From NCBI GenBank assembly GCA_039621445.1, contig CP154954.1:26424954-26488953 (forward strand): DNA of 64,000 bases, read 5' to 3'. Below, one piece after another: positions 3 to 47,948 of the stretch. The notes below the pieces were generated by a model. That model was not told the DNA's origin. It was given only the letters and a program-made list of their open reading frames with translations, and made no database searches. Each line of letters opens with the position of its first letter. Positions within the stretch are counted from its first letter, which is position 1. This DNA is from Euglena gracilis. Lineage: Eukaryota. Both the position numbers and the translations under genes were made by a program.

Positions 3-146
3 CGCTATGGGGGCAACATCATCCTCCTCGCACCGGACTGGTCCAAGGTGCTGGCTGCCCTTCAGAGCATCTCCTCGGGCAGCATGACCCTGCCACGGTG
101 CCCTATCTACCGGCACTGCTCCCGGCCCCGGTCTGGGCAACTGTAG
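3..146 (+). pseudogene. C-terminal part of a Dam-like N6-adenine methyltransferase domain in retrotransposon copy 1
   Basis: The frame from nt 3 reads RYGGNIILLAPDWSKVLAALQSISSGSMTLPRCP. This aligns by eye with LTEGGHLFLVCP...LTRVHGRLTLRCA, which follows the NPPF motif in copy 2, and with the 'LILIAPxW' strand of DIRS-type MTases. The NPPF motif itself would lie upstream of the window. Confidence 0.6.
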
Positions 147-655
147 CCCTGCGGATACACCACCCAGGCCACCCTCCACTGAGCAGTGCCCCGGGGCCAG
201 TGAGGCCCGTCTCCCGCGCAAGCTACTCGGAGCGTCCGCCTCGTGCCTCGTACACACCATATCCGCTCGCGCCACTTCTCTCCCTGGGGCAGCACCGCCT
301 CATCAGCAAGCGAACCGCCTTACACGGCGGCGAAACATTCCACCTGGGGGACTACGCGGGCCGGACTTTCCTGATCTACCACGACGCCCTCTGGGACATC
401 CGGGGTACCTCCCCCCACTGGTGCCAATGCTGTGGACTGTGGCAATGGCCATGGGACTGTCCCACGCTACTTCCCCAACACTTTGCCGCACCCAAAACAC
501 CACTTCTCCGGCCTGCCTTCCGGCTGAACCCCACCCCACACTCCTTCCTTGACGCCGTACAAGCACCACCAGCTGAGACAGCGCCGGCTCATCCGTCACC
601 AAAAAACGACCGTCGTAGTCCGTCACTAGGCGGTGCCTACACCTTGGGGACCAAC

Positions 656-1277: not shown

Positions 1278-3110
1278 CTCCCCCCATGGAATCTCGACTG
1301 GCATGAATGTCGACAAGTAATTTCTCGGCCAATAAAATGCCGACAGCCGGCTCCGGTCGAACAGACTTTTGTCGAAGGTTGGTTTTTGGCATGAGTTTCC
1401 CCATAGGTCGCCGCGCTGCTTCCCGCCAGTAAATATGTAACTTACCTGTCCCGACGAGGCTTCTTTTTAAGGTGCAGAGTCTCCCGGGGGGTGGGTCCGG
1501 GCCGGACCCCCCCCCCCGGGGGTGTTCCCCCCGTGACCCACCCGTGACCCCCCCCGTGACCCCCCCGTGACCCGAACAAGGACCCTTTTCGGCGAAATTT
1601 TGTAGGGAAAATTTTTGGCCGGTGATGCCCAATTTGATAAAATTCTCATGCAGATTCCTAATTTTGAGGTGTAAAATTTGCAAATTTGGGCTTGGTGATT
1701 CCTAATTTTGTGTCAAATTCCTAATTTCAGGTGTGGAGATTCCTAATTTGTGGAATTTTTCCACAAAAATTCCGGCTCGGTGATTCCTAATTTTGCCACC
1801 AAAAATGTGGTGTTCCCCCCGTGTCCCCCCCCCGTGACCCCCCCGTGACCCTCCCCGTGACCCGAACCACCCCCCCCCCGGGCGCCGGAGGCGCTGGGTA
1901 TACCTTTTCCGCGCGAAGCGCCGAAAAATTTTGGAAATTGCCTTTAATGGGCCCATTTTTGGGGGGTCCCCGCCCCCCGGGGGGGGTCCAGCCACCCTGC
2001 GTGGATGGGGCCCGGTCCCCCCCCCCGGGGGTCTTAAAAAGAAGCCTGGTCCCGATGACACGACAGAATTGGCCCGAAGTTGTTTGACCCGTGGGCAAAA
2101 AAATCCTCCAAAACTGTGGCACCCGGCTGCCCCCCCGTGGCCAGAAATTGGACCAAAAATGTGAGACCGGTGGCCCCACCCGTGGCCAAAAAAAAAGGCC
2201 CACTGTCCCCAAAGCTGGCGACCAATCTGCCACAACACCCATTCCCCCCCCCCCCCGTTGCCCAAAACAGCCCCACCCGCAGACCCAAAAAGGCCCCCCA
2301 AAACAGGCCAGATGGCACATTGACTCAAAAAAACCCTGATTGCAGATCCAACATGTCACATCCTGGGGCCATACTATTGAGAATCACGAAGCCCCAGAAA
2401 ACACCCTTGCAAACAAAACATATTAAAAAACTTTTGGTTTTCAAGCACAGCAACAGAAAATACAAATACAAGCGATTTCCTGGTCGTATTCCCAACATGG
2501 AGCAGTTTGGCGCGGACATGCTCAGGTCCAGATTAGTAACAAACTCATTCCAATAAGTTCATTTCAGCTCAAGCCACCTGTGTACATGGTCTCAGCACCA
2601 TATTCTTGAGCTTTGCGTGATCATCTGCAACAGCTCCGCACCAACTTCTGCACGATAGACTTCAGAAAATATTCTTGCCTGTGCTCTGCAGCAGAGAAGG
2701 AGGAACTCCCTGACATCATAGTTTGGCAAACCTTTGTCATCATGAGAGCTTGATGCCGAGAGAAACCAGTCAACTCAATAGCCCCTCTCAGCCACTTCTG
2801 CCATCCAGTCTTGTAACTCATCACAGCATCAAACATCCTATTGTGACCAAGATTTCCTGACCACAAACTTGTCCATTCCTCTGAAGACAAAGTTCAGGAT
2901 GTGAAAACATGTGTGGTTGAGTACCTTTGGCTACGGCCAGTCCAATTAGTAATATCCCGCCGCGTTCCCAGTCGCGGTCATCTGTACCAAAGATGTGAAT
3001 ACTTATTTCGAATACTGTGCGAGCTCGAACAGAGAAATATCGACAAGAGAGTGGTTCGGCTTTAGAATTTCTCGAGTTTAGTACGGTCTACATTTGGATA
3101 CCCCTGGTAC
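1278..3110. mobile_element. 1.8-kb composite insertion interrupting retrotransposon copy 1
   Basis: GTAC at 1274-1277 and 3107-3110; removal restores the frame. No TIRs were recognised at the outer ends. Confidence 0.75.
1456..2048. mobile_element. hAT-type MITE
   Basis: TIRs GAGGCTTCTTTTTAAG / CTTAAAAAGAAGCCTG (15/16). 8-bp TSD GTCCCGAC (1448-1455) / GTCCCGAT (2049-2056). The interior resembles 22240-22560. Confidence 0.8.
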
Positions 3111-3325
3111 GCAGCCTCACCGCAGAGGGGGCTTCTGCAAAGGCTGTTCAGATTCTGCTGTCCGAGGGTGCGCACCAACCGGACGACCCAGAGGTCTGGG
3201 GCGCCCTGGAAAAGCCACACCCTGTCGGCAGGAATGTTGACACCAATCGCCTGCCGCGTCACGTCCGCCCTTTCCACGAGAACCACACCCCTAACTGGGA
3301 GGACCGACTGAAGGAAGCCATCCGT

Positions 3326-6300
3326 GGCTCCCGGATCTGGCCTGGAGGGGGGGGGTAGTGGGGGTCGACCATGGTCGACCCACGGTCGCCTCGGTCGCCC
3401 TCGGTCGCTCTCGGTCGGGGGGGGGGGGGGGTTAGGGGGGGGGGGCCACCGAGGCGACCCTGGGGGACGACCGAGGGCGACCATGGTTGACCCCCACCCC
3501 ACGACGGGAAACCCCCCCTTTTGAAGGACGACCATGGCCGACCCCCACCCCACGACGGGAAACCCCCCCTGGAACGGGGGCGACCATGGTCGACCCCCAC
3601 CCCACGACGGGAAAACCCCCCTGGGGGGGGGGGAGGAACCTCGAAATCCCCTGTGTTGCCGAACCGTTTTGGAAGCCAATCCCTTTTGTTGCTCAACTGT
3701 TCCAGGGCCCCAAAATAACAAAATCCCCTGTGTTGCCGAACCGTTTTGGAAGCCAATCCCTTTTGTTGCGCAACTGTTCCAGGGCCCCAAAATAACAAAA
3801 ATCCCCTGTGCTGCCGAACCGTTTTGGAAGCCAATCCCTTTTGTTGCTCAACTGTGCCAGGGCCCCAAAATAACAACATCCCCTGTGCTGCCGAACCGTT
3901 TTGGAAGCGAATCCCTTTTGTTGCTCAACTGTCCCAGGGCCCCAAAATAACAAAAATCCCTTGTGCTGCCGAACCGTTGTGGAAGCCAATCCCTTTTGCT
4001 GCTCAACTGTCCCAGGGCCCCAAAATAACAAAAATCCCCTGTGCGGCCGAACCGTTTTGGAAGCCAATCCCTTTTGTTGCTCAACTGTTCCAGGGCCCCA
4101 AAATAACAACATCCCCTGTGCTGCCGAACCGTTTTGGAAGCCAATCCCTTTTGTTGCTGAACTGTCCCAGGGCCCCAAAATAACAACATCCCCTGTGCTG
4201 CCGAACCGTTTTGGAAGCGAATCCCTTTTGTTGCTTAACTGTCCCAGGGCCCCAAAATAACAAAAATCCCTTGTGCTGCCGAACCGTTGTGGAAGCCAAT
4301 CCCTTTTGCTGCTCAACTGTCCCAGGGCCCCAAAATAACAAAAATCCCCTGTGCGGCCGAACCGTTTTGGAAGCCAATCCCTTTTGTTGCTCAACTGTTC
4401 CAGGGCCCCAAAATAACAACATCCCCTGTGCTGCCGAACCGTTTTGGAAGCCAATCCCTTTTGTTGCTCAACTGTTCCAGGGCCCCAAAATAACAAAATC
4501 TCTTGTGCTGCCGAACCGTTTTGGAAGCCAATCCCTTTTGTTGCTCAACTTTCCCAGGGCCCCAAAATAACAAAATCCCCTGTGCTGCCGAACCGTTTTG
4601 GAAGCGAATCCCTTTTGTTGCTCAACTGTGCCAGGGCCCCAAAATAACAACATCCCCTGTGCTGCCGAACCGTTGTGGAAGCGAATCCCTTTTGTTGCTC
4701 AACTGTCCGAGGGCCCCAAAATAACAAAATCCCCTGTGCTGCCGAACCGTTTTGGAAGCCAATCCCTTTTGTTGCTCAACTGTTCCAGGGCCCCAAAATA
4801 ACAAAATCCCCTGTGCTGCCGAACCGTTTTGGAAGCGAATCCCTTTTGTTGCTCAACTGTGCCAGGGCCCCAAAATAACAACATCCCTTGTGCTGCCGAA
4901 CCGTTTTGGAAGCCAATCCCTTTTGTTGCTCAACTGTCCCAGGGCCCCAAAATAACAAAAACCCCTGTGCTGCCGAACCGTTTGGGAAGCCAATCCCTTT
5001 TGTTGCTCAACTGTCCCAGGGCCCCAAAATAACAAAATCCCCTGTGCTGCCGAACCGTTTTGGAAGCCAATCCCTTTTGTTGCTCAACTGTTCCAGGGCC
5101 ACAAAATAGCAAAATCCCCTGTGCTGCCGAACCGTTTTGGAAGCCAATCCCTTTTGTTGCTCAACTGTTCCAGGGCCCCAAAATAACAAAATCCCCTGTG
5201 CTGCCGAACCGTTTTGGAAGCCAATCCCTTTTGATGCTCAACTGTTCTAGGGCCCCAAAATAACAAAATCCCCTGTGCTGCCGAACCGTTTTGGAAGCCA
5301 ATCCCTTTTGTTGCTCAACTGTCCCAAGGCCCCAAAATAACAACATCCCCTGTGCTGCCGAACCGTTTGGGAAGCCAATCCCTTTTGTTGCTCAACTGTC
5401 CCAGGGCCCCAAAATAACAAAATCCCCTGTGCTGCCGAACCGTTTTGGAAGCCAATCCCTTTTGTTGCTCAACTGTTCCAGGGCCCCAAAATAACAAAAT
5501 CCCCTGTGCTGCCGAACCGTTTTGGAAGCGAATCCCTTTTGTTGCTCAACTGTCCCAGGGCCCCAAAATAACAACATCCCTTGTGCTGCCGAACCGTTTT
5601 GGAAGCCAATCCCTTTGTTGCTCAACTGTCCCAGGGCCCCAAAATAACAAAAACCCCTGTGCTGCCGAACCGTTTGGGAAGCCAATCCCTTTTGTTGCTC
5701 AACTGTCCCAGGGCCCCAAAATAACAAAAACCCCTGTGCTGCCGAACCGTTTGGGAAGCCAATCCCTTTTGTTGCTCAACTGTTCCAGGGCCACAAAATA
5801 GCAAAATCCCCTGTGCTGCCGAACCGTTTTGGAAGCCAATCCCTTTTGTTGCTCAACTGTTCCAGGGCCCCAAAATAACAAAATCTCTTGTGCTGCCGAA
5901 CCGTTTTGGAAGCCAATCCCTTTTGTTGCTCAACTTTCCCAGGGCCCCAAAATAACAAAATCCCCTGTGCTGCCGAACCGTTTTGGAAGCGAATCCCTTT
6001 TGTTGCTCAACTGTGCCAGGGCCCCAAAATAACAACATCCCCTGTGCTGCCGAACCGTTGTGGAAGCGAATCCCTTTTGTTGCTCAACTGTCCCAGGGCC
6101 CCAAAATAACAAAATCCCCTGTGCTGCCGAACCGTTTTGGAAGCCAATCCCTTTTGTTGCTCAACTGTGCCAGGGCCCCAAAATAACAACATCCCTTGTG
6201 CTGCCGAACCGTTTTGGAAGCCAATCCCTTTTGTTGCTCAACTGTCCCAGGGCCCCAAAATAACAAAAACCCCTGTGCTGCCGAACCGTTTGGGAAGCCA

Positions 6301-9300
6301 ATCCCTTTTGTTGCTCAACTGTCCCAGGGCCCCAAAATAACAAAATCCCCTGTGCTGCCGAACCGTTTTGGAAGCCAATCCCTTTTGTTGCTCAACTGTT
6401 CCAGGGCCCCAAAATAACAAAATCCCCTGTGCTGCCGAACCGTTTTGGAAGCGAATCCCTTTTGTTGCTCAACCGTCCCAGGGCCCCAAAATAACAACAT
6501 CCCTTGTGCTGCCGAACCGTTTTGGAAGCCAATCCCTTTTGTTGCTCAACTGTCCCAGGGCCCCAAAATAACAAAAACCCCTGTGCTGCCGAACCGTTTG
6601 GGAAGCCAATCCCTTTTGTTGCTCAACTGTCCCAGGGCCCCAAAATAACAAAAACCCCTGTGCTGCCGAACCGTTTGGGAAGCCAATCCCTTTTGTTGCT
6701 CAACTGTTCCAGGGCCACAAAATAGCAAAATCCCCTGTGCCGCCGAACCGTTTTGGAAGCCAATCCCTTTTGTTGCTCAACTGTTCCAGGGCCCCAAAAT
6801 AACAAAATCTCTTGTGCTGCCGAACCGTTTTGGAAGCCAATCCCTTTTGTTGCTCAACTTTCCCAGGGCCCCAAAATAACAAAATCCCCTGTGCTGCCGA
6901 ACCGTTTTGGAAGCGAATCCCTTTTGTTGCTCAAATGTGCCAGGGCCCCAAAATAACAACATCCCCTGTGCTGCCGAACCGTTGTGGAAGCGAATCCCTT
7001 TTGTTGCTCAACTGTCCCAGGGCCCCAAAATAACAAAATCCCCTGTGCTGCCGAACCGTTTTGGAAGCGAATCCCTTTTGTTGCTCAACTGTGCCAGGGC
7101 CCCAAAATAACAACATCCCTTGTGCTGCCGAACCGTTTTGGAAGCCAATCCCTTTTGTTGCTCAACTGTCCCAGGGCCCCAAAATAACAACATCCCCTGT
7201 GCTGCCGAACCGTTTTGGAAGCCAATCCCTTTTGATGCTCAACTGTTCCAGGGCCCCAAAATAACAAAATCCCCTGTGCTGCCGAACCGTTTTGGAAGCC
7301 AATCCCTTTTGTTGCTCAACTGTCCCAGGGCCACAAAATAGCAAAATCCCCTGTGCTGCCGAACCGTTTTGGAAGCCAATCCCTTTTGTTGCTCAACTGT
7401 TCCAGGGCCCCAAAATAACAAAATCCCCTGTGCTGCCGAACCGTTTTGGAAGCCAATCCCTTTTGATGCTCAACTGTTCCAGGGCCCCAAAATAACAAAA
7501 TCCCCTGTGCTGCCGAACCGTTTTGGAAGCCAATCCCTTTTGTTGCTCAACTGTCCCAGGGCCCCAAAATAACAAAAACCCCTGTGCTGCCGAACCGTTT
7601 GGGAAGCCAATCCCTTTTGTTGCTCAACTGTCCCAGGGCCCCAAAATAACAAAATCCCCTGTGCTGCCGAACCGTTTTGGAAGCCAATCCCTTTTGTTGC
7701 TCAACTGTTCCAGGGCCACAAAATAGCAAAATCCCCTGTGCTGCCGAACCGTTTTGGAAGCCAATCCCTTTTGTTGCTCAACTGTTCCAGGGCCCCAAAA
7801 TAACAAAATCTCTTGTGCTGCCGAACCGTTTTGGAAGCCAATCCCTTTTGATGCTCAACTATTCCAGGGCCCCAAAATAACAAAATCTCTTGTGCTGCCG
7901 AACCGTTTTGGAAGCCAATCCCTTTTGTTGCTCAACTGTCCCAGGGCCCCAAAATAACAAAAACCCCTGTGCTGCCGAACCGTTTGGGAAGCCAATCCCT
8001 TTTGTTGCTCAACTGTCCCAGGGCCCCAAAATAACAAAATCCCCTGTGCTGCCGAACCATTTTGGAAGCCAATCCCTTTTGTTGCTCAACTGTTCCAGGG
8101 CCACAAAATAGCAAAATCCCCTGTGCTGCCGAAACGTTTTGGAAGCCAATCCCTTTTGTTGCTCAACTGTCCCAGGGCCCCAAAATAACAAAATCTCTTG
8201 TGCTGCCGAACCGTTTTGGAAGCCAATCCCTTTTGATGCTCAACTGTTCCAGGGCCCCAAAATAACAAAATCTCTTGTGCTGCCGAACCGTTTTGGAAGC
8301 CAATCCCTTTTGTTGCTCAACTGTTCCAGGGCCCCAAAATAACAAAATCTCTTGTGCTGCCGAACCGTTTTGGAAGCCAATCCCTTTTGTTGCTCAACTG
8401 TCCCAGGGCCCCAAAATAACAAAATCCCCTGTGCTGCCGAACCGTTTTGGAAGCGAATCCCTTTTGTTGCTCAACTGTGCCAGGGCCCCAAAATAACAAC
8501 ATCCCCTGTGCTGCCGAACCGTTGTGGAAGCGAATCCCTTTTGTTGCTCAACTGTCCCAGGGCCCCAAAATAATAAAAATCCCTTGTGCTGCCGAACCGT
8601 TGTGGAAGCCAATCCCTTTTGCTGCTCAACTGTCCCAGGGCCCCAAAATAACAACAATCCCCTGTGCTGCCGAACCGTTTTGGAAGCCAATCCCTTTTGT
8701 TGCTCAACTGTTCCAGGGCCCCAAAATAACAAAATCCCCTGTGCTGCCGAACCGTTTTGGAAGCCAATCCCTTTTGTTGCTCAACTGTTCCAGGGCCCCA
8801 AAATAACAAAATCCCCTGTGCTGCCGAACCGTTTTGGAAGCGAATCCCTTTTGTTGCTCAACTGTCCCAGGGCCCCAAAATAACAACATCCCTTGTGCTG
8901 CCGAACCGTTTTGGAAGCCAATCCCTTTTGTTGCTCAACTGTCCCAGGGCCCCAAAATAACAAAAACCCCTGTGCTGCCGAACCGTTTGGGAAGCCAATC
9001 CCTTTTGTTGCTCAACTGTCCCAGGGCCCCAAAATAACAAAATCCCCTGTGCTGCCGAACCGTTTTGGAAGCGAATCCCTTTTGTTGCTCAACTGTTCCA
9101 GGGCCACAAAATAGCAAAATCCCCTGTGCTGCCGAACCGTTTTGGAAGCCAATCCCTTTTGTTGCTCAACTGTTCCAGGGCCCCAAAATAACAAAATCCC
9201 CTGTGCTGCCGAACCGTTTTGGAGGCCAATCCCTTTTGATGCTCAACTGTTCCAGGGCCCCAAAATAACAAAATCCCCTGTGCTGCCGAACCGTTTTGGA

Positions 9301-11588
9301 AGCCAATCCCTTTTGATGCTCAACTGTGCCAGGGCCCCAAAATAACAAAATCTCTTGTGCTGCCGAACCGTTTTGGAAGCCAATCCCTTTTGTTGCTCAA
9401 CTGTACCAGGGCCCCAAAATAACAAAATCCCTTGTGCTGCCGAACCGTTTGGGAAGCGAATCCCTTTTGTTGCTCAACTGTCCCAGGGCCCCAAAATATC
9501 AAAATCCCCTGTGCTGCCGAACCGTTTTGGAAGCCAATCCCTTTTGTTGCTCAACTGTCCGAGGGCCCCAAAATATCAAAATCCCTTGTGCTGCCGAACC
9601 GTTGTGGAAGCCAATCCCTTTTGTTGCTCAACTGTCCCAGGGCCCCAAAATAACAAAATCCCCTGTGCTGCCGAACCGTTTTGGAAACCAATCCCTTTTG
9701 TTGCTCAACTGTTCCAGGGCCACAAAATAGCAAAATCCCCTGTGCTGCCGAACCGTTTTGGAAGCCAATCCCTTTTGTTGCTCAACTGTTCCAGGGCCCC
9801 AAAATAACAAAATCTCTTGTGCTGCCGAACCGTTTTGGAAGCCAATCCCTTTTGATGCTCAACTGTTCCAGGGCCCCAAAATAACAAAATCTCTTGTGCT
9901 GCCGAACCGTTTTGGAAGCCAATCCCTTTTGTTGCTCAACTGTCCCAGGGCCCCAAAATAACAAAATCCCCTGTGCTGCCGAACCGTTTTGGAAGCGAAT
10001 CCCTTTTGTTGCTCAACTGTGCCAGGGCCCCAAAATAACAACATCCCCTGTGCTGCCGAACCGTTTTGGAAGCGAATCCCTTTTGTTGCTCAACTGTCCC
10101 AGGGCCCCAAAATAATAAAAAGCCCTTGTGCTGCCGAACCGTTGTGGAAGCCAATCCCTTTTGCTCCTCAACTGTCCCAGGGCCCCAAAATAACAACAAT
10201 CCCCTGTGCTGCCGAACCGTTTTGGAAGCCAATCCCTTTTGTTGCTGAACTGTCCCAGGGCCCCAAAATAACAAAATCGCCTGTGCCGCCGAACCGTTTT
10301 GGAAGCCAATCCCTTTTGTTGCTCAACTGTTCCAGGGCCCCAAAATAACAAAATCCCCTGTGCTGCCGAACCGTTTTGGAAGCGAATCCCTTTTGTTGCT
10401 CAACTGTGCCAGGGGCCCAAAATAACAACATCCCTTGTGCTGCCGAACCGTTTTGGAAGCCAATCCCTTTTGTTGCTCAACTGTCCCAGGGCCCCAAAAT
10501 AACAAAAACCCCTGTGCTGCCGAACCGTTTGGGAAGCCAATCCCTTTTGTTGCTCAACTGTCCCAGGGCCCCAAAATAACAAAATCCCCTGTGCTGCCGA
10601 ACCGTTTTGGAAGCCAATCCCTTTTGTTGCTCAACTGTTCCAGGGCCCCAAAATAACAAAATCCCCTGTGCTGCCGAACCGTTTTGGAAGCGAATCCCTT
10701 TTGTTGCTCAACTGTGCCAGGGCCCCAAAATAACAACATCCCTTGTGCTGCCGAACCGTTTTGGAAGCCAATCCCTTTTGTTGCTCAACTGTCCCAGGGC
10801 CCCAAAATAACAAAATCCCCTGTGCTGCCGAACAGTTTTGGAAGCGAATCCCTTTTGTTGCTCAACTGTGCCAGGGCCCCAAAATAACAACATCCCTTGT
10901 GCTGCCGAACCGTTTTGGAAGCCAATCCCTTTTGTTGCTCAACTGTCCCAGGGCCCCAAAATAACAAAATCCCTTGTGCTGCCGAACCGTTTGGGAAGCG
11001 AATCCCTTTTGTTGCTCAACTGTCCCAGGGCCCCAAAATAATAAAAATCCCCTGTGCTGCCGAACCGTTTTGGAAGCCAATCCCTTTTGTTGCTCAACTG
11101 TTCCAGGGCCCCAAAATATCAAAATCCCTTGTGCTGCCGAACCGTTGTGGAAGCCAATCCCTTTTGTTGCTCAACTGTTCCAGGGCCCCAAAATATCAGA
11201 GTCCCCTTCGAAATGGGGGGGGGGTTCCCGTCGTGGGGTGGGGGTCGACCATGGTCGCCCCCCGACCAAGGGGGGTTTCCCGTCGTGGGGTGGGGGTCGA
11301 CCATGGTCGTCCTTCAAAAGGGGGGGTTTCCCGTCGTGGGGTGGGGGTCGACCATGGTCGCCCCTGAAAGGGGGGGGGGTTTCCGTCGTGGGGTGGGGGT
11401 CGACCATGGTCGCCCATGAATGGGGAGGGTTTCCCGTCGTGGGGTGGGGGTCGACCATGGTCGCCCTCGGTCGACCCCCACGACCGAATACGGCCTGGCC
11501 TCGGTCGACCCCCACGACCGAGGGCGACCGTGGGTGGACCATGGTCGACCCCCACTACCCCCCCCCCCCCAGGATGTAGCTACCCCTC
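3326..11588. mobile_element. Non-autonomous DNA transposon (Mutator-like by TSD length) carrying a satellite array
   Basis: Perfect 9-bp TSD GCCATCCGT (3317-3325, 11589-11597). Inverted repeats start at CCTGG (3341) and end at CCAGG (11573). Subterminal repeats GACCATGGTCGACCCCCACCCCACGACGGGAAACCC are direct on the left and inverted on the right. No transposase ORF. Confidence 0.85.
3644..11198. repeat. 77-bp tandem satellite, about 98 copies
   Basis: Unit AAATCCCCTGTGCTGCCGAACCGTTTTGGAAGCCAATCCCTTTTGTTGCTCAACTGTCCCAGGGCCCCAAAATAACA with a few recurring variant sites. ORF calls recur every 77 nt. Confidence 0.97.
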
Positions 11589-13052
11589 GCCATCCGTCGC
11601 TTCCCACGGCCATCGGCGCCGGGGCCATCTGGGTTGCGACCAAGCCACCTCCAAGACTGCCTGCGGAGACCAGGTCGAGGAGCAAGGCTGATCACTGCCC
11701 TCGCACTCCTGATTCGAGTCTGGGTGGACGGCCAGCTACCGCCCCACCACCAGGCTTCCCTGCCCTTGTCAAGTGGCGGCTACGGCCTCCGCATCCCAAC
11801 CTTCACACAGCCTGCGGCCAGGATTTCCTGCCTTGCAGACTTCTACTCCGATGGGGCACGACGGGTTGGCGTTCCCGGCTACGCAACCTCCCCACAGCCC
11901 TCCCTCATTACGCCTGTCCTGGACGACCTCAGGGGCAGGCTAGGGGCCAATCACGCCACGGTCACCACCTTCCTCAGCAACCCTCAACGTATCGCGTCTG
12001 CGGACTCAGAACCCCGGAAACAGAAATGGTGGAATCACGAGCTGGGCAACAAGACGATGGATGACCTGGTGGACCAGGCTCGTCCCCGGGACCAGAACCG
12101 CCTCCTCGAACAGGCCACAGGCTTCGGACATGGTTGGATGGCAGCAACCCCCTCCAACAACTCCCACACCACTTTCTCCAGCGAAGAGTACACCTTGGGG
12201 TTGAAGTGGTGGCTAGGTCTCCCGGTGCTGAACGACGTCAGCCAACCATGCACGGGATGCAACCAGCCCCTGGACAAGGAAGGTGACCACCTCCTTTGCT
12301 GTCGCAGGAATAACTTCGCCACCCGCCACAACGCTGTTCAGGACGCACTGTTCCAAACCTTGTCCAACAGCGGACAGCGGGTACAGAAGGAGGTTTCCCT
12401 GCCAACGGCCCAAGATAGCCACCTCCGCCCGGCCGACCTCCTCCTAGACTGTTGGTCTGACGGGAAGCCGACAGCGCTGGATGTCACCGTCTGCCACGGA
12501 TGGCAGGCGACTGAACACACTGCCACCCGCGAACGGTGGAGATCCTTCCTGAAGAGAAGGGAGGAGGCCAAAAAGCAGAAGTACAACATCCCATGCCAGC
12601 AAGCAGGCTAGGGCTTCACGCCCTTCGCCCTGGGAACGTGGGGGGGCATGGGGCCCGAGACAGCCAAAACCCTCAGCCGGGTGGCGAAACGCGCCTCGTC
12701 CTGGCAACAGGGGGCGGAACGAGAATTAAAGGAGGCGGAGATTTACCAGAATGTCGCAATCGCCCTATTACGCGAAGTCTTCCATCTCTTGCAACCCAAG
12801 CACATTCTCCGTTAAAAAAAAAACCAACAACACACACACACACAACCACGACCCACCGCCACTCTCCCCGTCAAGCCACATACCGCCGCCCTGCCCCCGA
12901 CCCCGCTACACTCCAGCACTGCCGTTCCCCTCAGCTCCCCGCTCCCCCTCGCCCCTCTACCCTCGCACAACGTATTGAAGGTGGGCCTAGCCCATTTTCC
13001 GCCCGCCGTCCTATACCCCAGCTGTAAATTATCGTAACCGCCTGCGGACCTA

Positions 13053-13106
13053 CAAATCCAGTAGGCTGTGCCACTGGTCGGTGGATTCGGTTCGCCCCAC
13101 CACCGC
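13053..13106 (+). other. Conserved 54-nt 3'-UTR motif of the CRE-like elements (putative structured RNA)
   Basis: CAAATCCAGTAGGCTGTGCCACTGGTCGGTGGATTCGGTTCGCCCCACCACCGC is identical at 17989-18042, with a diverged copy at 60703-60753. Stems CCAGT/ACTGG and GGTGG/CCACC. Confidence 0.7.
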
Positions 13107-13680
13107 GCTTTCTCTGACAGAAGTTCTCGCCGTGTGAGGCCGTACCCCAAGGGGTGTACTTGAGCCATTGGCGTAGCCAATCCGCACGTTTTCGGACCAT
13201 CTGCCTGCGGAAAAGAAAATACGCTCGGAGCAGGAATTTTGTGGCCGCACAAATCTGGCTGCGCCGCTGGAGCAACTTTCTCTTCCGCCCTACGGAGGGG
13301 AGGTTTTTCGTCTGCACGCTCTGTTTGCAAAAAATAACACAGACCTCGTCCCTTCAGAACACTCTCCTCCTTCTCTCTACTCACACTTCCTGCTGCACCA
13401 CGGAACACCTGTCTACCCCCCCCCCACCAGCCCGCCTTCCGCCTTTGTGAGCCCAAAGGACCAACCCGCTCTGCCGGATGTTGCCCAAGTTCGTCCGGGC
13501 GTCCACCCTTCCGCTAAAACCCCGGTGGTTCCCATGACAGGGCAGGGGTATCTGTTGATACCGCCGTACCATCCCTCTGCGTGTCCACCACCAGTGGGCC
13601 GCTCAAGCCACGCTGGCCTAACCCGCCCAAATTTCTCTCTCCTCCCAGTGGGAGCCTCCGACACCGGACTGCCTCTCGCG

Positions 13681-13957
13681 GATGACTACATACTCGAGCC
13701 CGGCTGGTTCCGTGTCGCCGTCCACACGCTCACCTACTTCCCTCCCTATTATTGACGCCTTTGCGGCGCCGCACAACAGCCAATGCCCAGCCTTCTGGGA
13801 TAAACACCAGAACGCATTTCTCCAAGATTGGAGCAGGCCGCGGCCTATTTGGGTCAACCCTCCGTTTTCGCTTCTTCCTCTCGTCCTCCGCAAACTTCTG
13901 ACGGAAGGGGGCCATCTGTTCCTTGTCTGCCCTTCCGATCACCCTGCGCGACCCTGA
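13681..13957 (+). pseudogene. Dam-like (phage/DIRS-type) DNA N6-adenine methyltransferase domain
   Basis: DDYILEPGWFRVAVHTLTYFP[frameshift]PIIDAFAAPHNSQCPAFWDKHQNAFLQDWSRPRPIWVNPPFSLLPLVLRKLLTEGGHLFLVCP contains IDxFA...N, NAFxxDW and the catalytic NPPF motif. Confidence 0.85.
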
Positions 13958-14259
13958 CCCGAGTCCATGGGCGGCTCACCCTCCGTTGTGCCGTCTCGTA
14001 AATCAACCGTTCCTGGAGTGACAGCGACAGTTTTGTAAAAATCATCCTCCGCTCTTCAGCGGAGCTCCGCTCTGGAACGTCCCCCCGAAACAATTTACCC
14101 CCCCCCTTTATTGTCCCACCGACCTGCCCCCGGGAGGCCCGGCCGGACAATAAAGGGGCGCCACGTCCGGCGTCCACTCGTTGCGCCTTCCGCTTCCCCA
14201 CCTCCGTTCGGGAACGCTGGCTGCCGCCCTTTTCCTCCCTAACCGCCCTTCTGCGCTCT

Positions 14260-14311
14260 GGCAGAGGTTTCGCCCTGCTCTCCTGCGGCGACATCGAGTA
14301 ATCCGGGGCCC
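14260..14311 (+). other. Frameshifted 2A-like peptide GRGFALLSCGDIE-x-NPG|P
   Basis: GGC AGA GGT TTC GCC CTG CTC TCC TGC GGC GAC ATC GAG T AAT CCG GGG CCC: the x codon is reduced to one base. The NPGP frame runs without a stop into the C2H2 finger and ORF 14537-15028. Confidence 0.8.
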
Positions 14312-17300
14312 AACACCAATCGGGACTCCGCCAAAAAGACACGCCAGAGTCGGGAGTCACAAGCCCCACACCTTCTATACCCCACACAGGTCTGTCTCAA
14401 GAAATGGCGTTGGCCACCATCCTCCCCAGCAGCAACGACGCTGCAACCCGGCCTGCCGTCCGACCTTGGTCCGGGGTTTTCCTTTGCTTCCCATGACACC
14501 TGCCCCTTTGCAGATTGCCCACGCTCGCGGACAACCATGACCCGCTCTCAGGTCCTATCTCACGTCTCTCAACACGTCGCCGCCGGACGATCACCCACCC
14601 CCGAATTTTTGCGAGCTACTGCGACCACGACTTGCGCCATTTGTCGGACCTTGCTACGGGCAAGAGAACGTTGCCAATGCCCCCACCAGGGTGCCTCGGC
14701 CGTCCTCGCTTCTTCACACCCCTCTGTCCCACTCCCCTCTTCATCGCACCAACCCGTCGGGAATGGCACTCCTCTATCTCTCCCGTGCCCAGATATGCAG
14801 CCCGATCTGCAGGTGGTTCTCTCCACCAACTGCCCCACTCTTCGCCGTATCCCAGTGTCAAGTCGTCACGCCATTTGTGACGCCCTTGCATCCTCCATTC
14901 AGACCTTTCTCCGAGCCCAAACCTGGGAAGCTCTACACCGCCTGTTCATTTTTCCGAAACTCGTTCTTGGTGCCCCTCCCAAAACCTCGTCTTCCCATCA
15001 ACACACATTGCATTGCCTCCTGGAATAGCCGGGATGGTAGTACGGACGAGCAAAACCAAGGCCAATGCCACTCCTTACAAGAGCAGCATTGTACTGGCGG
15101 TGGGAAGCGGGTGTCCCAAAGTGTGTGCTGATGGAAGACGAAAAGGCGATCCCGGAAGGCCAGCACCGGGGACGAGGTGTGTCGGTGTATCCATTTGAAT
15201 GACTTGTGCCAGTCCACTAGGGATTCAGGTGGCACGCAGGAGAGTTTGCTGCTTTGTTTGATCCGCTTCGCTCTGACAGACGGCGAAAGCGGCCCACCAC
15301 CCGCGCCAACCCCTCTGGCTCTACTTCTGACTCTGTGGCACGTGGTCAGGTTCGCGGACTCGTTGAAGAAGGGGCCCTCGGCAAGGCTGTGGACGCTCTC
15401 ACCTCTTTGCCCCTGGCATCGCCCGGGGATCCAGCAGTGATGCAGAAGCTCCTTTCGCTCCATCCACAGGGGTCCCCATTACGAGCCAGTTTGCCGCTGC
15501 CTGGGGCAGGCAATACTCCACAAACTACTGACTTCAACTGGTCGTTAATTGTGCAAGAAGCTGCAGCCTCTTTCCCCCGTGGCAGCGCCCCCGGCCCATC
15601 TGGTCTCCGTCCACAACACCTTCGGGACTTGTTGGACCGTGAGGCCGGGACAGGCCCGCTACACACAGCCTTGGGGTCCCTGGCTCAGAAGGCCTGGGAG
15701 TGTTCTCTGCCAGCAAAAGCCTCGATCGTTTTTGGTACGTCAAATCTGATCCCACTTACCAAAAAGGATGGCGGTCTTCGGCCGATCGACGTGGGGGATT
15801 GCCTCCGGCGCTTCATTGGGAAAATGCTGTTGCGACACCCGCAGTGCAAAGCGGAAATGTCTCAGCTGTTCCCGCAGCAATTGGGAGTGGGGGTGCGCTA
15901 CGGTGCGGAGACAGTCGGGTTGGCGGTGCAGGCCGCACTGGCGTCTCTGCCAGTGGATGGCGATTGGGTGGTTTTCCAGGCCGACGTTTCCAACGCCTTC
16001 AACACCATTGATCGATCCGCGTTCCTGCAGGCATCCCTGGACCTCTGCCCGTCCCTTTACAACTGGCTCCGATTCTCCTACGGAGAAGACGTCCCACTTC
16101 TTTGCTAGGGTGACGTGCTGTGTCACAGCAGGACCGGTGTCCATCAAGGGGACACATGTGGGCCCATTGCCTTTGCCTTGGGTCTCCATCAGGCGCTGCA
16201 ACAGGCTTCGGCCAATTTGCCCAACACGGTGTGGCAGGCATGGTACTTGGACGACGGTACTGTCATCGGCCCTGCCGTTGATGTTCTGCCTTTCACGGCT
16301 TCTCTGGCCACGGCACTTGGCAGCGTTGGGCTCCACCTCAACCCCTCTAAGTGTGCCTTGTGGGGACTAGGTGTACCCTGTGCCACTCCGAAACCCCCGG
16401 CTCTTCAGATCCTGCCTCCCGACCACCTTGCACAAAACTTCCCGGTCACTCCATGGGGACCGGGCAGTGGCATCCTGTGCCTAGGGGTACCTTGCGACTA
16501 TCCTGGTGACTGCACCTTTTCTGACACCACGTGGGCCAAGGCATCTGAAAAATTTCAAGCTACCATCTCGCGCCTCCAACAACCGCTGGATCCCCAACTC
16601 CAACATTGTTTGCTGCGCAACTGTCTGGATGGCTGCCGCGTCACGCACCTTCTGCGTCAGACAAACATTTCCGGGACACACAGTGTGCAAGTGATCTCTG
16701 ACTCCATCCGGAGTGCTGCCTGTGACATTGTGGGGGCACCCCTGTCTACCTTGCATTGGAAACAAATCACCTTGCCGTGCAATAAGACAGGGTGGGGCAT
16801 CACAGACCCCCAGTTGAAAAGACCAGCTGCCCGTTTGGCTGCTTGCGTGGGTTTTTCCCAACGAGCGCCCGGCTTCAATATCCCTCCGCCCTGGCGCATG
16901 CTCCCGCTACCAGATACCATCCCCGTCGCCAAACTGGCTCGTGACACCTTGGGCCCGCACAGCGAACCATTGGCTTCCTGGATCGCCAACCCTTCTTCCT
17001 TGGCCTGTTCCACCCCAGATCACTCCACTCAATCGTGGTTGGCCGAACGTTTCCACGCCGTTCGCGTGGCAACTTTGGAGGAGGGTGCACCTCTTCGGGA
17101 CATTGACAGGCTTCGTTGCCAGTCCTCTGCCTTCCTTCAAAATTGGATGACCGTCTTACCATCCAGGTCGGTGAATACCGTCCTAGCTCCGGACAAATAC
17201 AGACTGCTTCTACGCTTCTGGACTGGCTTACCCCTGATCCCAACAACGGACATGCTTCTGTGCCTTTTGTGTGCTGAGGCAGTCGATCCATTTGGTGATC

Positions 17301-17836
17301 ACCTCCTGGCTTGCAGAAGGAATGGCATAACAGAAAGACACAACTGTGTTCGTGACGCCATTTTTGACCTGTGCCAACGCTCAGGCATCACTCTTCGCAA
17401 AGAACAGGGATGCGAGGGTGGCACCCGTGACGCTGATCTCCTCCTCCTGGGGTGGAACAAAGGGAAGCATCTCGCTGTTGATGTCACCATTGAACACCCG
17501 CTGGCCCCATCACGGTGGCCTCTGAACTTGACCCGAGTTCAGCGTACTTTACCAGACACTGAAATGCACAAGAGAACACAAGCCGAAGAACGGTGCGCCC
17601 GCCACCAGTGGGAGTACATTGGGGCTGCATTTAACCCCTGGGGGTGCACAGGACCGGCAGCCTCCAAACTCCTACGCGATGTCCTACGCCTCGCGACCAA
17701 TTCATATTCTGGAACAGCCAAACAACAAAAATTTCAGGAATTGACCGAAAACTTGGCCATCACACTGGCCCGTGCAGTTGCACGACAGCTGCGGTTGGTC
17801 GAAAGAGCCACAGATCGTATGATCCTGAACTCGTAA
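14300..17836 (+). pseudogene. Zinc finger - reverse transcriptase - RLE polyprotein of copy 2
   Basis: CPFADC-x12-HVSQH; SAPGPSGLRPQHL; LIPLTKKDGGLRPI; DVSNAFNTIDR; GVHQGD; WYLDDG; CLLC...DHLLAC; RHNCVRD; RDADLLL; AVDVTI. Disrupted near 15010-15255 and by a TAG at 16106-16108. Confidence 0.92.
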
Positions 17837-18134
17837 GGTGATAATGCTCCCCGTTGCACCAGCCGGAGAACACCGCGCATGCACACTTCACACCTCTCCA
17901 CCCATCACTCTCTGCTTGGGCTTTGCCCTTGCTCTCACCGCTCGACCCACACTCCTTCGTTGTATATAGCCTCGCACCCTCGAACACTCAAATCCAGTAG
18001 GCTGTGCCACTGGTCGGTGGATTCGGTTCGCCCCACCACCGCACAACTTTCTGTGGTAGGGCTCAGCAGAGCCACGGAACCGTGTGAGGTATGGTTCGTC
18101 TGCATATCAAAAAAAAAACCCACTACAAACATTA

Positions 18135-18990
18135 GGCCGCAAGAACGGCCTCACCGAAAGACATAACTGCCTCCGGGACGCCCTCGTCGATCTCTGCCAG
18201 CAAGAAGGCATTTAGGCATTTCTGTTCGCAAGGAGTAGAGCTGCGAATCTGGCACTCGCGATGCCGACCTCCTACTGCTCGGTTAGAACAGAGGAGGCAC
18301 CTTGCCGTAGACGTTACCATCGAACACCCTCTGGCCCCCCTCCCGGTGGCCTCTGAATCTCACCCGTGTCTCGCACTTTGCCTGATGCTGAGCTGAGCTG
18401 CATACCCTCACCCCCCTCTCAAAGTGGCCACCCTCCAAGCACCAAGGGGAGTAACCTGAAATTTTCCAATTTTTTTGGCCACTTTGGGGGGACACTTTGA
18501 GGAGGGGGGTGAGGGTAAAAGGAACCAGGCAGAGGACAGATGTTCGCAGCATCAGTGGGGCTACTCCGGTGTGGCTTTCAACCCGTGGGGCTATCCTGGC
18601 CCTGCCGCTGCCAAGCTCCTCCATGACATCCTCCACATGGCTACAAACCCTTTCGCCAGCACTGTCAAACAACGCCGGCTCCAGGAACTGACAGAGAACC
18701 TATCTGTCACACTCGCCCGGGCAGTTGCCCGCAACTGCGCCTGGCCGAAAGAGCCACAGACCGGATGCTTTTATCCACGTGATAATTCACCCTAACGCCG
18801 GTGCCCTCACACTCCCCCCCCTCTCTTTTTCCCCTCCTCTCCCTTTCACACTGGTCCTCTGGGCCATCACACATAAACCTATACTCCCCAAACCCCCAAC
18901 CTTGAGCTTTGCTCAAGCGTCCGCTCGCTTACTCGCGCTTGTTGTATTTGTACATACTCCTAACCAAACCAGGACTATCCACAACTGGCC
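18135..18990 (+). mobile_element. 5'-truncated third copy (RLE region plus part of the 3' UTR), related to copy 2
   Basis: TERHNCLRDAL...TRDADLLLLG...AVDVTIEHPLAP and QWGYSGVAFNPWG...LTENLSVTLARAVAR closely parallel 17330-17800; frameshifts and a small insertion near 18400-18515. Confidence 0.85.

Positions 18991-28505: not shown

Positions 28506-47948
<19,443 letters not shown>

Follow-up and report, generated by a model that had tools for sequence, protein, structure and literature searches.

Can a retrotransposon of the LINE (long interspersed nuclear element) type carry an adenine methyltransferase of its own? In the usual view, a LINE encodes no more than its own copying requires, namely an RNA-binding protein, an endonuclease and a reverse transcriptase (RT), and the question is raised by a stretch of 64,000 nucleotides from Euglena gracilis (contig CP154954.1 of assembly GCA_039621445.1, positions 26,424,954 to 26,488,953 of the forward strand; this whole stretch is called the window here, and positions are counted from its first letter). 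A first-pass annotation had described an NPPF-type N6-adenine methyltransferase carried N-terminally by a LINE, at 13681-14000. The window is GC-rich eukaryotic DNA laden with repeats, and the stretch in question lies in an element that we call copy 2 (family B); an element of a distantly related family, copy 1 (family A), is broken off at the start of the window. In its anatomy and membership, copy 2 is very probably a methyltransferase-bearing LINE of the R2-like type. The explanation that we consider likely as a whole is that of a dead R2-like LINE copy with a predicted Dam-like methyltransferase delimited by 2A (StopGo) sites, for which we propose a self-marking role.

A Dam-like adenine methyltransferase domain in copy 2

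The domain is spread over several reading frames of copy 2. Its parts, located by translation, are as follows (frames are given modulo 3).

13534-13536, plus strand: candidate start codon (inferred), the sole ATG in the open frame running into DDY
13681-13734, plus strand, frame 1: first piece of the methyltransferase (DDYILEPGWFRVAVHTL)
13681-13710, plus strand, frame 1: DDYILEPGWF, the first motif (DDY block)
13739-13954, plus strand, frame 2: methyltransferase core, with a stop at 13955-13957
13751-13765, plus strand, frame 2: IDAFA
13811-13831, plus strand, frame 2: NAFLQDW
13850-13894, plus strand, frame 2: WVNPPFSLLPLVLRK, with NPPF at 13856-13867
13916-13933, plus strand, frame 2: LFLVCP
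13990-14102, plus strand, frame 0: decayed last third of the methyltransferase, with LCRLVNQPF, a stop at 14019-14021 and PPLFSGAPLWNVPPKQF

The core falls in a stop-to-stop open reading frame (ORF) of 111 amino acids (13622-13957, plus strand), which holds SLPIIDAFAAPHN, NAFLQDW, IWVNPPFSLLPLVLRK and GGHLFLVCPS. The neighbouring frame is open over 13177-13755 and terminates in DDYILEPGWFRVAVHTL; the candidate ATG in this frame lies 49 codons ahead of DDY. The DDY motif is in a different frame from the other four motifs, as the first-pass annotation had implied. The same annotation called the motif set complete, which holds for the five motifs that it listed, all of them present, but not for the last third of the domain: this is only a decayed remnant (consensus LP..F..G..P.P.W, recognized by a weak frameshift-aware alignment to the database proteins P0039 and P0160), interrupted by a stop and followed by a 61-base insert. 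Measured on the 136-position profile introduced below, positions 1-20 of the domain are off-frame, 21-97 are in frame and 98-136 are decayed, and the whole domain is not in one open frame, whereas intact relatives possess it in full.

The proposed identity of the domain was confirmed by profile searches. The Pfam family Dam (PF05869) matches 13622-13957 with an E-value of 3e-10 and 40.5 bits, above the curated cut-off of 28.1, which gives the domain a profile hit to the amino-methyltransferases, and the fold of an intact relative agrees with it. A phmmer search of 1.84 billion representatives returned 379 proteins at E<=1e-3, including 42 at E<=1e-10, and a custom methyltransferase profile of 136 positions, made from these relatives, scores 97.2 bits on 13739-13969 (profile positions 21-97). 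Given these scores, the motif observation is real and far beyond chance. In a 69-row alignment of the domain W77 is invariant, and D45, F47, A48, W59, A65, W70, N79, P80 and P81 are nearly so; of the 40 rows of the LINE/2A group of the methyltransferase tree (see below), 37 retain NPPF and all retain the aspartate of DAFA, at 35-60% identity. The IDAFA segment would be a D-x-F-A strand resembling motif I, on the cofactor side. The assignment of the copy 2 domain to the Dam-type NPPF N6-adenine methyltransferases is supported, catalysis being predicted from sequence. Sequence searches of the PDB with P0010 (another database relative), the window ORF and the 69-row profile yielded no useful match, and tblastn of 88 domain sequences on 13100-14400 at high E-values yielded noise and no usable signal.

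Small phage and bacterial Dam enzymes act on GATC DNA. Those belonging to PF05869 have the profile family and the minimal layout in common with the copy 2 domain but are free-standing or fused to phage or bacterial proteins. P0061 is a bacterial-type protein with AAA_25 and two PF05869-type domains (E-value 3.9e-38).

Structure prediction for the 111-residue fragment from the window gave a model that is good only over residues 41-105 (predicted local distance difference test, pLDDT, of 94-96 in the core), and Foldseek found no match to it at E<=0.001. P0002 is an intact relative that is 57% identical to the copy 2 domain and begins right after NPGP; its model has a pLDDT of 81 and a sheet-and-helix core over residues 16-144. 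The best Foldseek match is CAPAM (probability 0.99), which is also the best match in a structural search independent of Foldseek (Z 9.3, root-mean-square deviation 3.0, 125 aligned residues), with DIMT1 (Z 8.0), ErmE (7.8), Escherichia coli Dam (7.8), Mcbe1 (7.6) and T4 Dam (7.6) behind it. All these top rows are N6-adenine methyltransferases, of RNA and DNA alike, and the model of P0002 displays a predicted class I methyltransferase fold. CAPAM (PCIF1; structures 6irx and 6irw), the cap-specific adenosine N6-methyltransferase, resembles P0002 in being an N6-adenine methyltransferase but is 14% identical to it and a much larger protein; since the Z values are middling, a common fold does not imply kinship here.

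The carrier is an R2-like LINE

The element around the domain has the following parts.

13113-18043, plus strand: copy 2 (family B), whole element, colinear with P0039 and P0010; its 3' end, at 18041, comes from more than 100 contigs with loose ends
14263-14311, plus strand: 2A site, RGFALLSCGDIE / NPGP, broken by a 2-base gap (DIESNPGP in other copies)
14501-14680, plus strand: zinc-finger-like region, CPFADC..H....H at 14501-14575 and C..C..C.C at 14633-14680, by pattern
15229-17836, plus strand: ORF of the RT and the restriction-like endonuclease, ending at 17834-17836, with an in-frame stop at 16106-16108
17983-18043, plus strand: conserved 3' tail with two predicted hairpins, common to copy 1 and 60700-60761

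Copy 2 consequently reads 5' leader, methyltransferase, 2A, putative zinc-finger region, RT, CCHC/endonuclease and conserved 3' tail, and by tblastn it is colinear with segments 316-380, 553-576, 569-792 and 824-1661 of P0039, from the methyltransferase through the endonuclease. The zinc-finger-like pattern at 14501-14575 is colinear with a C2H2-like block of P0039; its Pfam match is not significant. The RT has the motifs GSAPGPSGLRP (15581-15613), DVSNAFN and YLDDG (16244-16258). The endonuclease part comprises a CCHC block (CLLC...H...C, 17261-17314), RDADLLL (17426-17446) and AVDVT (17474-17488), its residue set spanning 17261-17572. In an alignment of 17 long relatives of this ORF, several of them cut by contig ends, C385, C388, H398, C402, R410, H411, E432, R440, D443 and D458 are invariant and K488 nearly so. 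We take the CCHC and the R/D/D/K block, by their pattern, to be the restriction-like endonuclease motif set of R2-type elements.

A profile built from the 17 relatives matches R2 proteins best in the PDB (R2Tg, 9dou, 1.4e-22; R2, 9nl3, 5.6e-22; R2Bm, 8gh6, 1.1e-12), followed at much lower significance by L1 ORF2p (2e-6) and group II intron RTs (0.01). The Pfam family RVT_1 is weak on the window ORFs and clear on the relatives, and a search of the ESM Atlas returned generic RVT_1 clusters only. Dam and RVT_1 were the only Pfam families found in 46 window ORFs (6 + 40), with no integrase, tyrosine recombinase, RNase H or apurinic endonuclease-like (APE) domain, and they were likewise the only ones in P0008, P0010, P0039, P0160 and P0161. 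Comparison of the window with itself found no long terminal repeats (LTRs) or other long flanking repeats, the only match being the 55-base tail of the neighbouring copy. The identification of the carrier as a LINE, made in the first-pass annotation, agrees with all these results, and its placement among the non-LTR retrotransposons of the restriction-like-endonuclease (R2-like) type, as a very abundant element, is supported by PDB profile match and motifs.

The 3' tail of about 55 bases is identical in copies 1 and 2 (13050-13112 and 17983-18043) and recurs at 60700-60761; in each of the sequencing runs X1, X2 and X14 (see below), between 52 and 68 contigs match the stretch only beginning at 17982 or 17988, and the flanking sequence past 18041 varies among contigs. 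The tail is thus common to LINE families just 30-45% identical in protein, and it is possibly a recognition signal for the RT. The fold of its two hairpins is no better than that of shuffled sequences (z -1.43), and an Rfam scan of the window found nothing. The elements stand head to tail, the next one beginning with CTTTCT.TG...CCGTGTGAGG right after the preceding tail (13113-13150 and 18044-18090), and the letters between such tandem joints in contigs include TTTCTGAG. The third element of the row (18044-18780) has an internal deletion rather than a 5' truncation.

The methyltransferase is a module of the LINE

Whether the methyltransferase belongs to the LINE or merely lies next to it can be judged from relatives. 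Five unbroken database ORFs have the order methyltransferase, 2A, RT, endonuclease.

P0008, 1294 amino acids: methyltransferase 1-133, 2A at 275, RT 546-914, endonuclease 1106-1283
P0010, 1273 amino acids: same module order
P0039, 1805 amino acids: methyltransferase 297-431, three 2A-like motifs, C2H2-like block as in copy 2
P0160, 2111 amino acids: same module order
P0161, 1727 amino acids: same module order

From this recurrence in five unbroken ORFs it follows that the methyltransferase is part of the LINE and not a chance neighbour or a piece of a DIRS element. The position of the domain upstream of the RT, which the first-pass annotation had set against the order in DIRS elements, is also borne out: in copy 2 it lies 1.5 kb before the RT (15229 onward), and the order is that of the five ORFs. 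The word "N-terminal" is apt for the family of copy 2 (with the ATG at 13534) and for P0008 and P0010, but in other relatives the domain is internal, between two 2A sites.

The family of copy 1, although only 30-45% identical in protein to copy 2, has the same module order. Its remains at the start of the window are as follows.

3-163, plus strand: tail of the methyltransferase, GGNIILLAPDWS...LPRCPIY in frame 3, then LLPAPVWATVALRIHH in frame 2, with a frameshift near 113
392-460, plus strand: Cys-rich block WD.RG..C..C..W.WPW.C, between methyltransferase and 2A, same in P0008, P0005 and P0001
686-709, plus strand: whole 2A motif DVEGNPGP with GSLLTCG ahead of it, by pattern
11589-12803, plus strand: remainder, RT start and then endonuclease part, with the RT core deleted (tblastn)
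13050-13112, plus strand: 3' tail, same ~55 bases as the tail of copy 2

In tblastn, residues 72-108 of P0008 match 3-113 and residues 113-469 match 113-1240 (P0005 also matched), and the custom profile matches 9-119 with its positions 77-113 (independent E-value 1e-4). The window consequently opens with the end of this methyltransferase domain, from a family distant from copy 2, in good agreement with the first-pass annotation, which had recognized this tail at 3-146. At the first bases of the window, frame 3 reads GGNIILLAPDWSKVLAALQSISSGSMTLPRCPIY; the NPPF part of copy 1 would lie upstream of position 1. The Cys-rich block of family A would belong to the same StopGo product as the methyltransferase. 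Inserted DNA, including a 77-base satellite, splits the remainder of copy 1 from the parts at 2-1303 and 3110-3349. The insert (3474-11466) comprises 98 satellite units (3644-11207, 94% matches) flanked by two short arrays of 51-52-base units, one the reverse complement of the other (3474-3632 and 11217-11466), a foldback-like layout. Far from these elements, ARAGORN found the one tRNA of the window, a tRNA-Pro (GGG) at 43006-43094, which at 89 bases is long for a tRNA and may for that reason hold an intron.

The 2A motif accompanies the domain more widely. Among the 167 proteins collected, 152 bear the methyltransferase, and 43 of these 152 have a D(V/I)ExNPGP-like motif, often within 25 residues ahead of the domain (e.g. 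P0002, P0006, P0012 and P0019). In a quick tree of 107 domain rows, each covering at least 100 profile positions, the window sequence falls into a group of 41 rows (Shimodaira-Hasegawa-like approximate likelihood ratio test, SH-aLRT, 89; not starred) together with all seven LINE-RT-linked rows, 24 of the 29 rows with 2A only and nine unlabelled ones. The copia-type, the C5-methylase-linked and two RVT_1-linked rows are in the other half of the tree, and the DIRS-like row P0104 is outside the 41-row group. In a tree of 30 RT rows, the methyltransferase-bearing elements occupy at least four lineages of one starred clade. Because at least four lineages carry the module and close relatives are without it, it is old in the clade but optional.

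Several relatives show further combinations. P0001, P0092 and P0004 have two methyltransferase domains in tandem, with a 2A-like motif between them in P0004, and P0060 combines a Dam-like domain with a C5 cytosine methylase domain, as do the "EpiLTR" elements (10.64898/2026.05.21.726589). P0167, a distant relative by its RT, has this RT between a plant homeodomain (PHD) finger on the N-terminal side and a ubiquitin C-terminal hydrolase (UCH, E-value 2.4e-65) on the C-terminal side, and by these domain matches is predicted to be another LINE-like protein with an accessory enzyme.

Copy 2 is dead, but other copies restore the frame at both 2-base gaps

The lesions of copy 2 were mapped by frameshift-aware alignment to relatives and by contigs of four public sequencing runs (X1, X2, X14 and X15) on 13100-18100. 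These contigs are too short to bridge modules and are not independent of the assembly, as they possibly come from the assembly strain. Alignment and contigs agree on seven lesions.

13728-13729, plus strand: lesion 1, 2-base gap; one contig each of X1, X2, X14 and X15 reads CT behind 13728
~13953, plus strand: lesion 2, break; an X14 contig of 305 bases agrees with the window over 13751-13952 but not beyond, and a stop follows in the window at 13955
14019-14021, plus strand: lesion 3, stop in the decayed last third
14098-14158, no strand: lesion 4, 61-base palindromic insert with 14-base inverted ends; contig loose ends at 14098 and 14158
behind 14295, plus strand: lesion 5, 2-base gap inside the 2A motif; X1, X2 and X14 read GA
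15026-15228, minus strand: lesion 6, 203-base insert peculiar to copy 2; the 15025->15229 joint occurs in one X1 and one X15 contig
16106-16108, plus strand: lesion 7, single in-frame stop in the RT

Copy 2 is a dead pseudogene copy. With the missing bases restored, the translations read DDYILEPGWFRVAVHTLSPTSLPIIDAFA (at 13728) and RGFALLSCGDIESNPGPNTNRDS (at 14295); the former restoration, CT, puts the first and second methyltransferase pieces in one frame, and RGFALLSCGDIESNPGPNTNRDS is in frame with the ORF at 14243-15025. To judge from these restored letters, the first break is absent from other members of the family, and their 2A is intact. The D(V/I)ExNPGP motif between coding parts is whole in copy 1, and it is whole, as DIESNPGP, in contigs of other copy-2-type elements.

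The two inserts deserve a brief comment. The 61-base palindrome, whose ends read CCCCTTTATTGTCC...GGACAATAAAGGGG, sits in the decayed end of the methyltransferase and is present in a single copy in the window; it is a repeat far more abundant than the LINE, the contig bin 14102-14268 standing about 30-fold above its neighbours. The 203-base insert separates the zinc-finger-like region of copy 2 from its RT and contains on its minus strand (15050-15118) the Cys-rich block of family A, WDTRF..C..C..W.WPWFC; it may have come from a template switch between families during reverse transcription.

What the module might do

At 2A sites in general, the ribosome releases the upstream product at NPG/P and continues (PMC3708506; 10.64898/2026.09.24.754024), and from the conserved motif we infer ribosome skipping at the sites described here. 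The intact element would be a single long reading frame of modules separated by 2A sites, the first module being a minimal Dam-like (PF05869) N6-adenine methyltransferase of about 135 residues that has a D-A-F-A strand and, as its catalytic loop, NPPF. Initiation would take place near 13534, and the methyltransferase would be made first and released at D-I-E-S-N-P-G/P as a free protein of about 20-25 kDa (with an additional Cys-rich tail in family A); the protein made after the 2A, with zinc finger, RT and endonuclease, would perform target-primed reverse transcription. The released enzyme might then methylate adenines at N6 in the nucleic acid of the element itself, be it cDNA, an RNA:DNA hybrid or the new insert, and new copies would come to lie in permissive chromatin marked by N6-methyladenine (6mA), as has been proposed for LTR elements carrying methyltransferases.

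This last step is modelled on work on other retroelements. Methyltransferase-carrying LTR families, including those of E. gracilis, have more 6mA, and it has been proposed that such enzymes put 6mA on reverse-transcription intermediates, the host AMT1 then keeping the insertions in permissive chromatin (10.64898/2026.05.21.726589). By analogy, methylation of the LINE's own nucleic acid, with new copies in 6mA-marked permissive chromatin, is a tentative proposal that we put forward as conceivable but not as probable. The full scenario, in which a hugely amplified clade of R2-like LINEs has a 2A-modular polyprotein whose Dam-like module methylates the replication intermediate (cDNA, RNA:DNA hybrid or capped RNA), so that insertions would be born with the host's mark of active chromatin, we regard as rather doubtful in its entirety.

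A number of observations weigh against parts of the picture drawn above. The best structural match of P0002 is an RNA cap methyltransferase, all the Z values are middling, and the best Foldseek E-value is no lower than 1.2e-2. Enzymes of the family from DIRS, LTR and adintovirus elements caused no rise of 6mA in dam-deficient E. coli (10.64898/2026.05.21.726589). An upstream 2A in copy 2 was not found by pattern, and frameshift-aware alignments to P0161 and P0003 were unconvincing. The methyltransferase is present in only two of the 17 long RT relatives, and a 2A motif in nine; in P0154, P0155 and P0162 the part ahead of the RT exceeds 450 residues yet contains no methyltransferase, the long N-terminal parts of P0154 and P0155 having 2A sites nonetheless, and the RT of P0162 is almost identical to that of the methyltransferase-bearing P0161. 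The module looks dispensable. Finally, five of the seven disabling lesions of copy 2 fall within 620 bases, from the methyltransferase to the 2A site, out of about 4150; this may be due to chance, to a locally fragile stretch, or to the spread of variants with an already dead methyltransferase. Part of the contig depth at 13728 and 14295 carries the broken state of the window, and for this reason variants with a broken methyltransferase may also have spread.

Three other explanations were considered. In the first, the methyltransferase piece is left over from a DIRS or LTR element, or is an assembly chimera, and stands before an unrelated LINE by chance. Nested insertions, chimeric elements and assembly artefacts have been listed as possible causes for LINE-like RTs in E. 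gracilis (10.64898/2026.05.21.726589), and the locus of copy 2 is indeed a patchwork with several insertions, its methyltransferase stretch being more broken than its RT. A chance juxtaposition is nevertheless very improbable and largely refuted: it does not account for five unbroken ORFs from other sources with one and the same module order, for the colinearity of copy 2 with P0039 throughout, for the same order in the family of copy 1, or for other copies restoring the frame at both 2-base gaps, and a Pfam scan of 46 window ORFs turned up no domain of a DIRS or LTR element.

The other two alternatives accept the module as part of the LINE and concern its activity. Its substrate could be RNA rather than DNA, including the RNA strand of a replication intermediate; the element's capped transcript is one example. 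The best structural match, CAPAM, also has NPPF, adenine methyltransferases of ribosomal RNA come next and are level with the DNA enzyme Dam, the domain is without a separate target-recognition domain, and the E. coli assays of DNA 6mA were negative for relatives (10.64898/2026.05.21.726589). Against this stand the sequence family, which is named for DNA Dam enzymes, and the raised DNA 6mA on methyltransferase-carrying families (10.64898/2026.05.21.726589); by Z value, enzymes of RNA and of DNA cannot be told apart. We regard an RNA target as unlikely and keep it as a rival because of the likeness to the RNA cap methyltransferase. A module that is not catalytic at all, whether an accessory protein binding nucleic acid or S-adenosylmethionine (a helper resembling ORF1p) or one in the course of being lost, is decidedly unlikely: repeated absences among close RT relatives, including the methyltransferase-less twin of P0161, the negative heterologous assays (10.64898/2026.05.21.726589) and the clustering of the copy 2 lesions in the module would fit it, but the retention of NPPF by 37 and of the motif-I aspartate by all of the 40 rows, at such modest overall identity, is the pattern predicted by selection on catalysis.

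Comparison with known elements

Dam-like domains in DIRS elements have long been known. Fernandez-Moreno et al. (bioRxiv, 10.64898/2026.05.21.726589) described "DAM-TEs" with DIRS (DAM-DIRS) and Ty3-like LTR (DAM-LTR) carriers, which have in common with copy 2 the Dam-like family with its Asn-Pro-Pro core, a retroelement as carrier, E. gracilis among the hosts and a proposed role in 6mA chromatin. In DAM-DIRS the methyltransferase follows the RT/RNase H and is accompanied by a tyrosine recombinase, whereas the module of copy 2 precedes the RT and is delimited by 2A; Ty3-like DAM-LTRs have LTRs and an integrase, unlike copy 2, for which neither an rve domain nor an LTR was found (10.64898/2026.05.21.726589). 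We accordingly rejected membership of copy 2 in the DIRS elements, given a domain 1.5 kb upstream of the RT and no recombinase in the 46 window ORFs, and in the Ty3-like DAM-LTRs, given Pfam results without rve and a self-comparison without LTR. Relatives of these other kinds do exist in our collection, P0104 having a DIRS-like order and P0103 (rve and RVT_2) being of the LTR type. The preprint mentions LINE/L1-like RTs of E. gracilis once, as possible chimeras or artefacts, and speaks neither of 2A nor of the endonuclease (10.64898/2026.05.21.726589).

LINEs with a single ORF and a restriction-like endonuclease include R2, R4, NeSL, CRE and Hero (PMC3708506). Copy 2 is like the R2-type elements in that a CCHC motif and a restriction-like endonuclease come after the RT, that a predicted zinc-finger-like region precedes it and that LTRs are absent, and also in occurring in truncated or internally deleted copies and in having R2 proteins as its nearest solved structures. 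To our knowledge, no R2-type member with a methyltransferase or with several 2A sites has been reported. 2A sites occur in the APE-type LINEs L1Tc, Ingi, CR1, L2 and Crack (Odon et al. 2013, PMC3708506; PMC13405545). These elements resemble the clade of copy 2 in having the D(V/I)ExNPGP StopGo motif within a LINE frame, near its 5' part, but differ in their APE endonuclease and in usually having one 2A near the N-terminus (PMC3708506; PMC13405545), whereas the clade of copy 2 has a restriction-like endonuclease, up to four or five 2A motifs in relatives, and sites that bracket an extra enzyme. Our survey of the literature found no description of a methyltransferase in a LINE, nor of Euglena LINEs, although the supplements of the DAM-TE preprint may list such elements. 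What is new here is the combination: a known domain family and the known idea of a transposon-borne adenine methyltransferase, in a new class of carrier and with a new mode of expression.

The E. gracilis elements that the preprint left open as an oddity thereby receive a concrete reading: if ours is true, the "DAM-LTRs with LINE-like RT", set aside there as possible artefacts, are these very elements (10.64898/2026.05.21.726589). Sister families that differ in whether they have the module (P0161 against P0162, the clade of copy 2 against P0154) offer natural controls for the effect of a transposon-borne writer on the 6mA of its own element. A LINE clade with an adenine methyltransferase, made as a separate protein by predicted ribosome skipping, carries the finding made in DIRS and LTR elements over to LINEs, the third great class of retroelements; if the full scenario is true, LINEs would be an independent third class that brings its own epigenetic writer.

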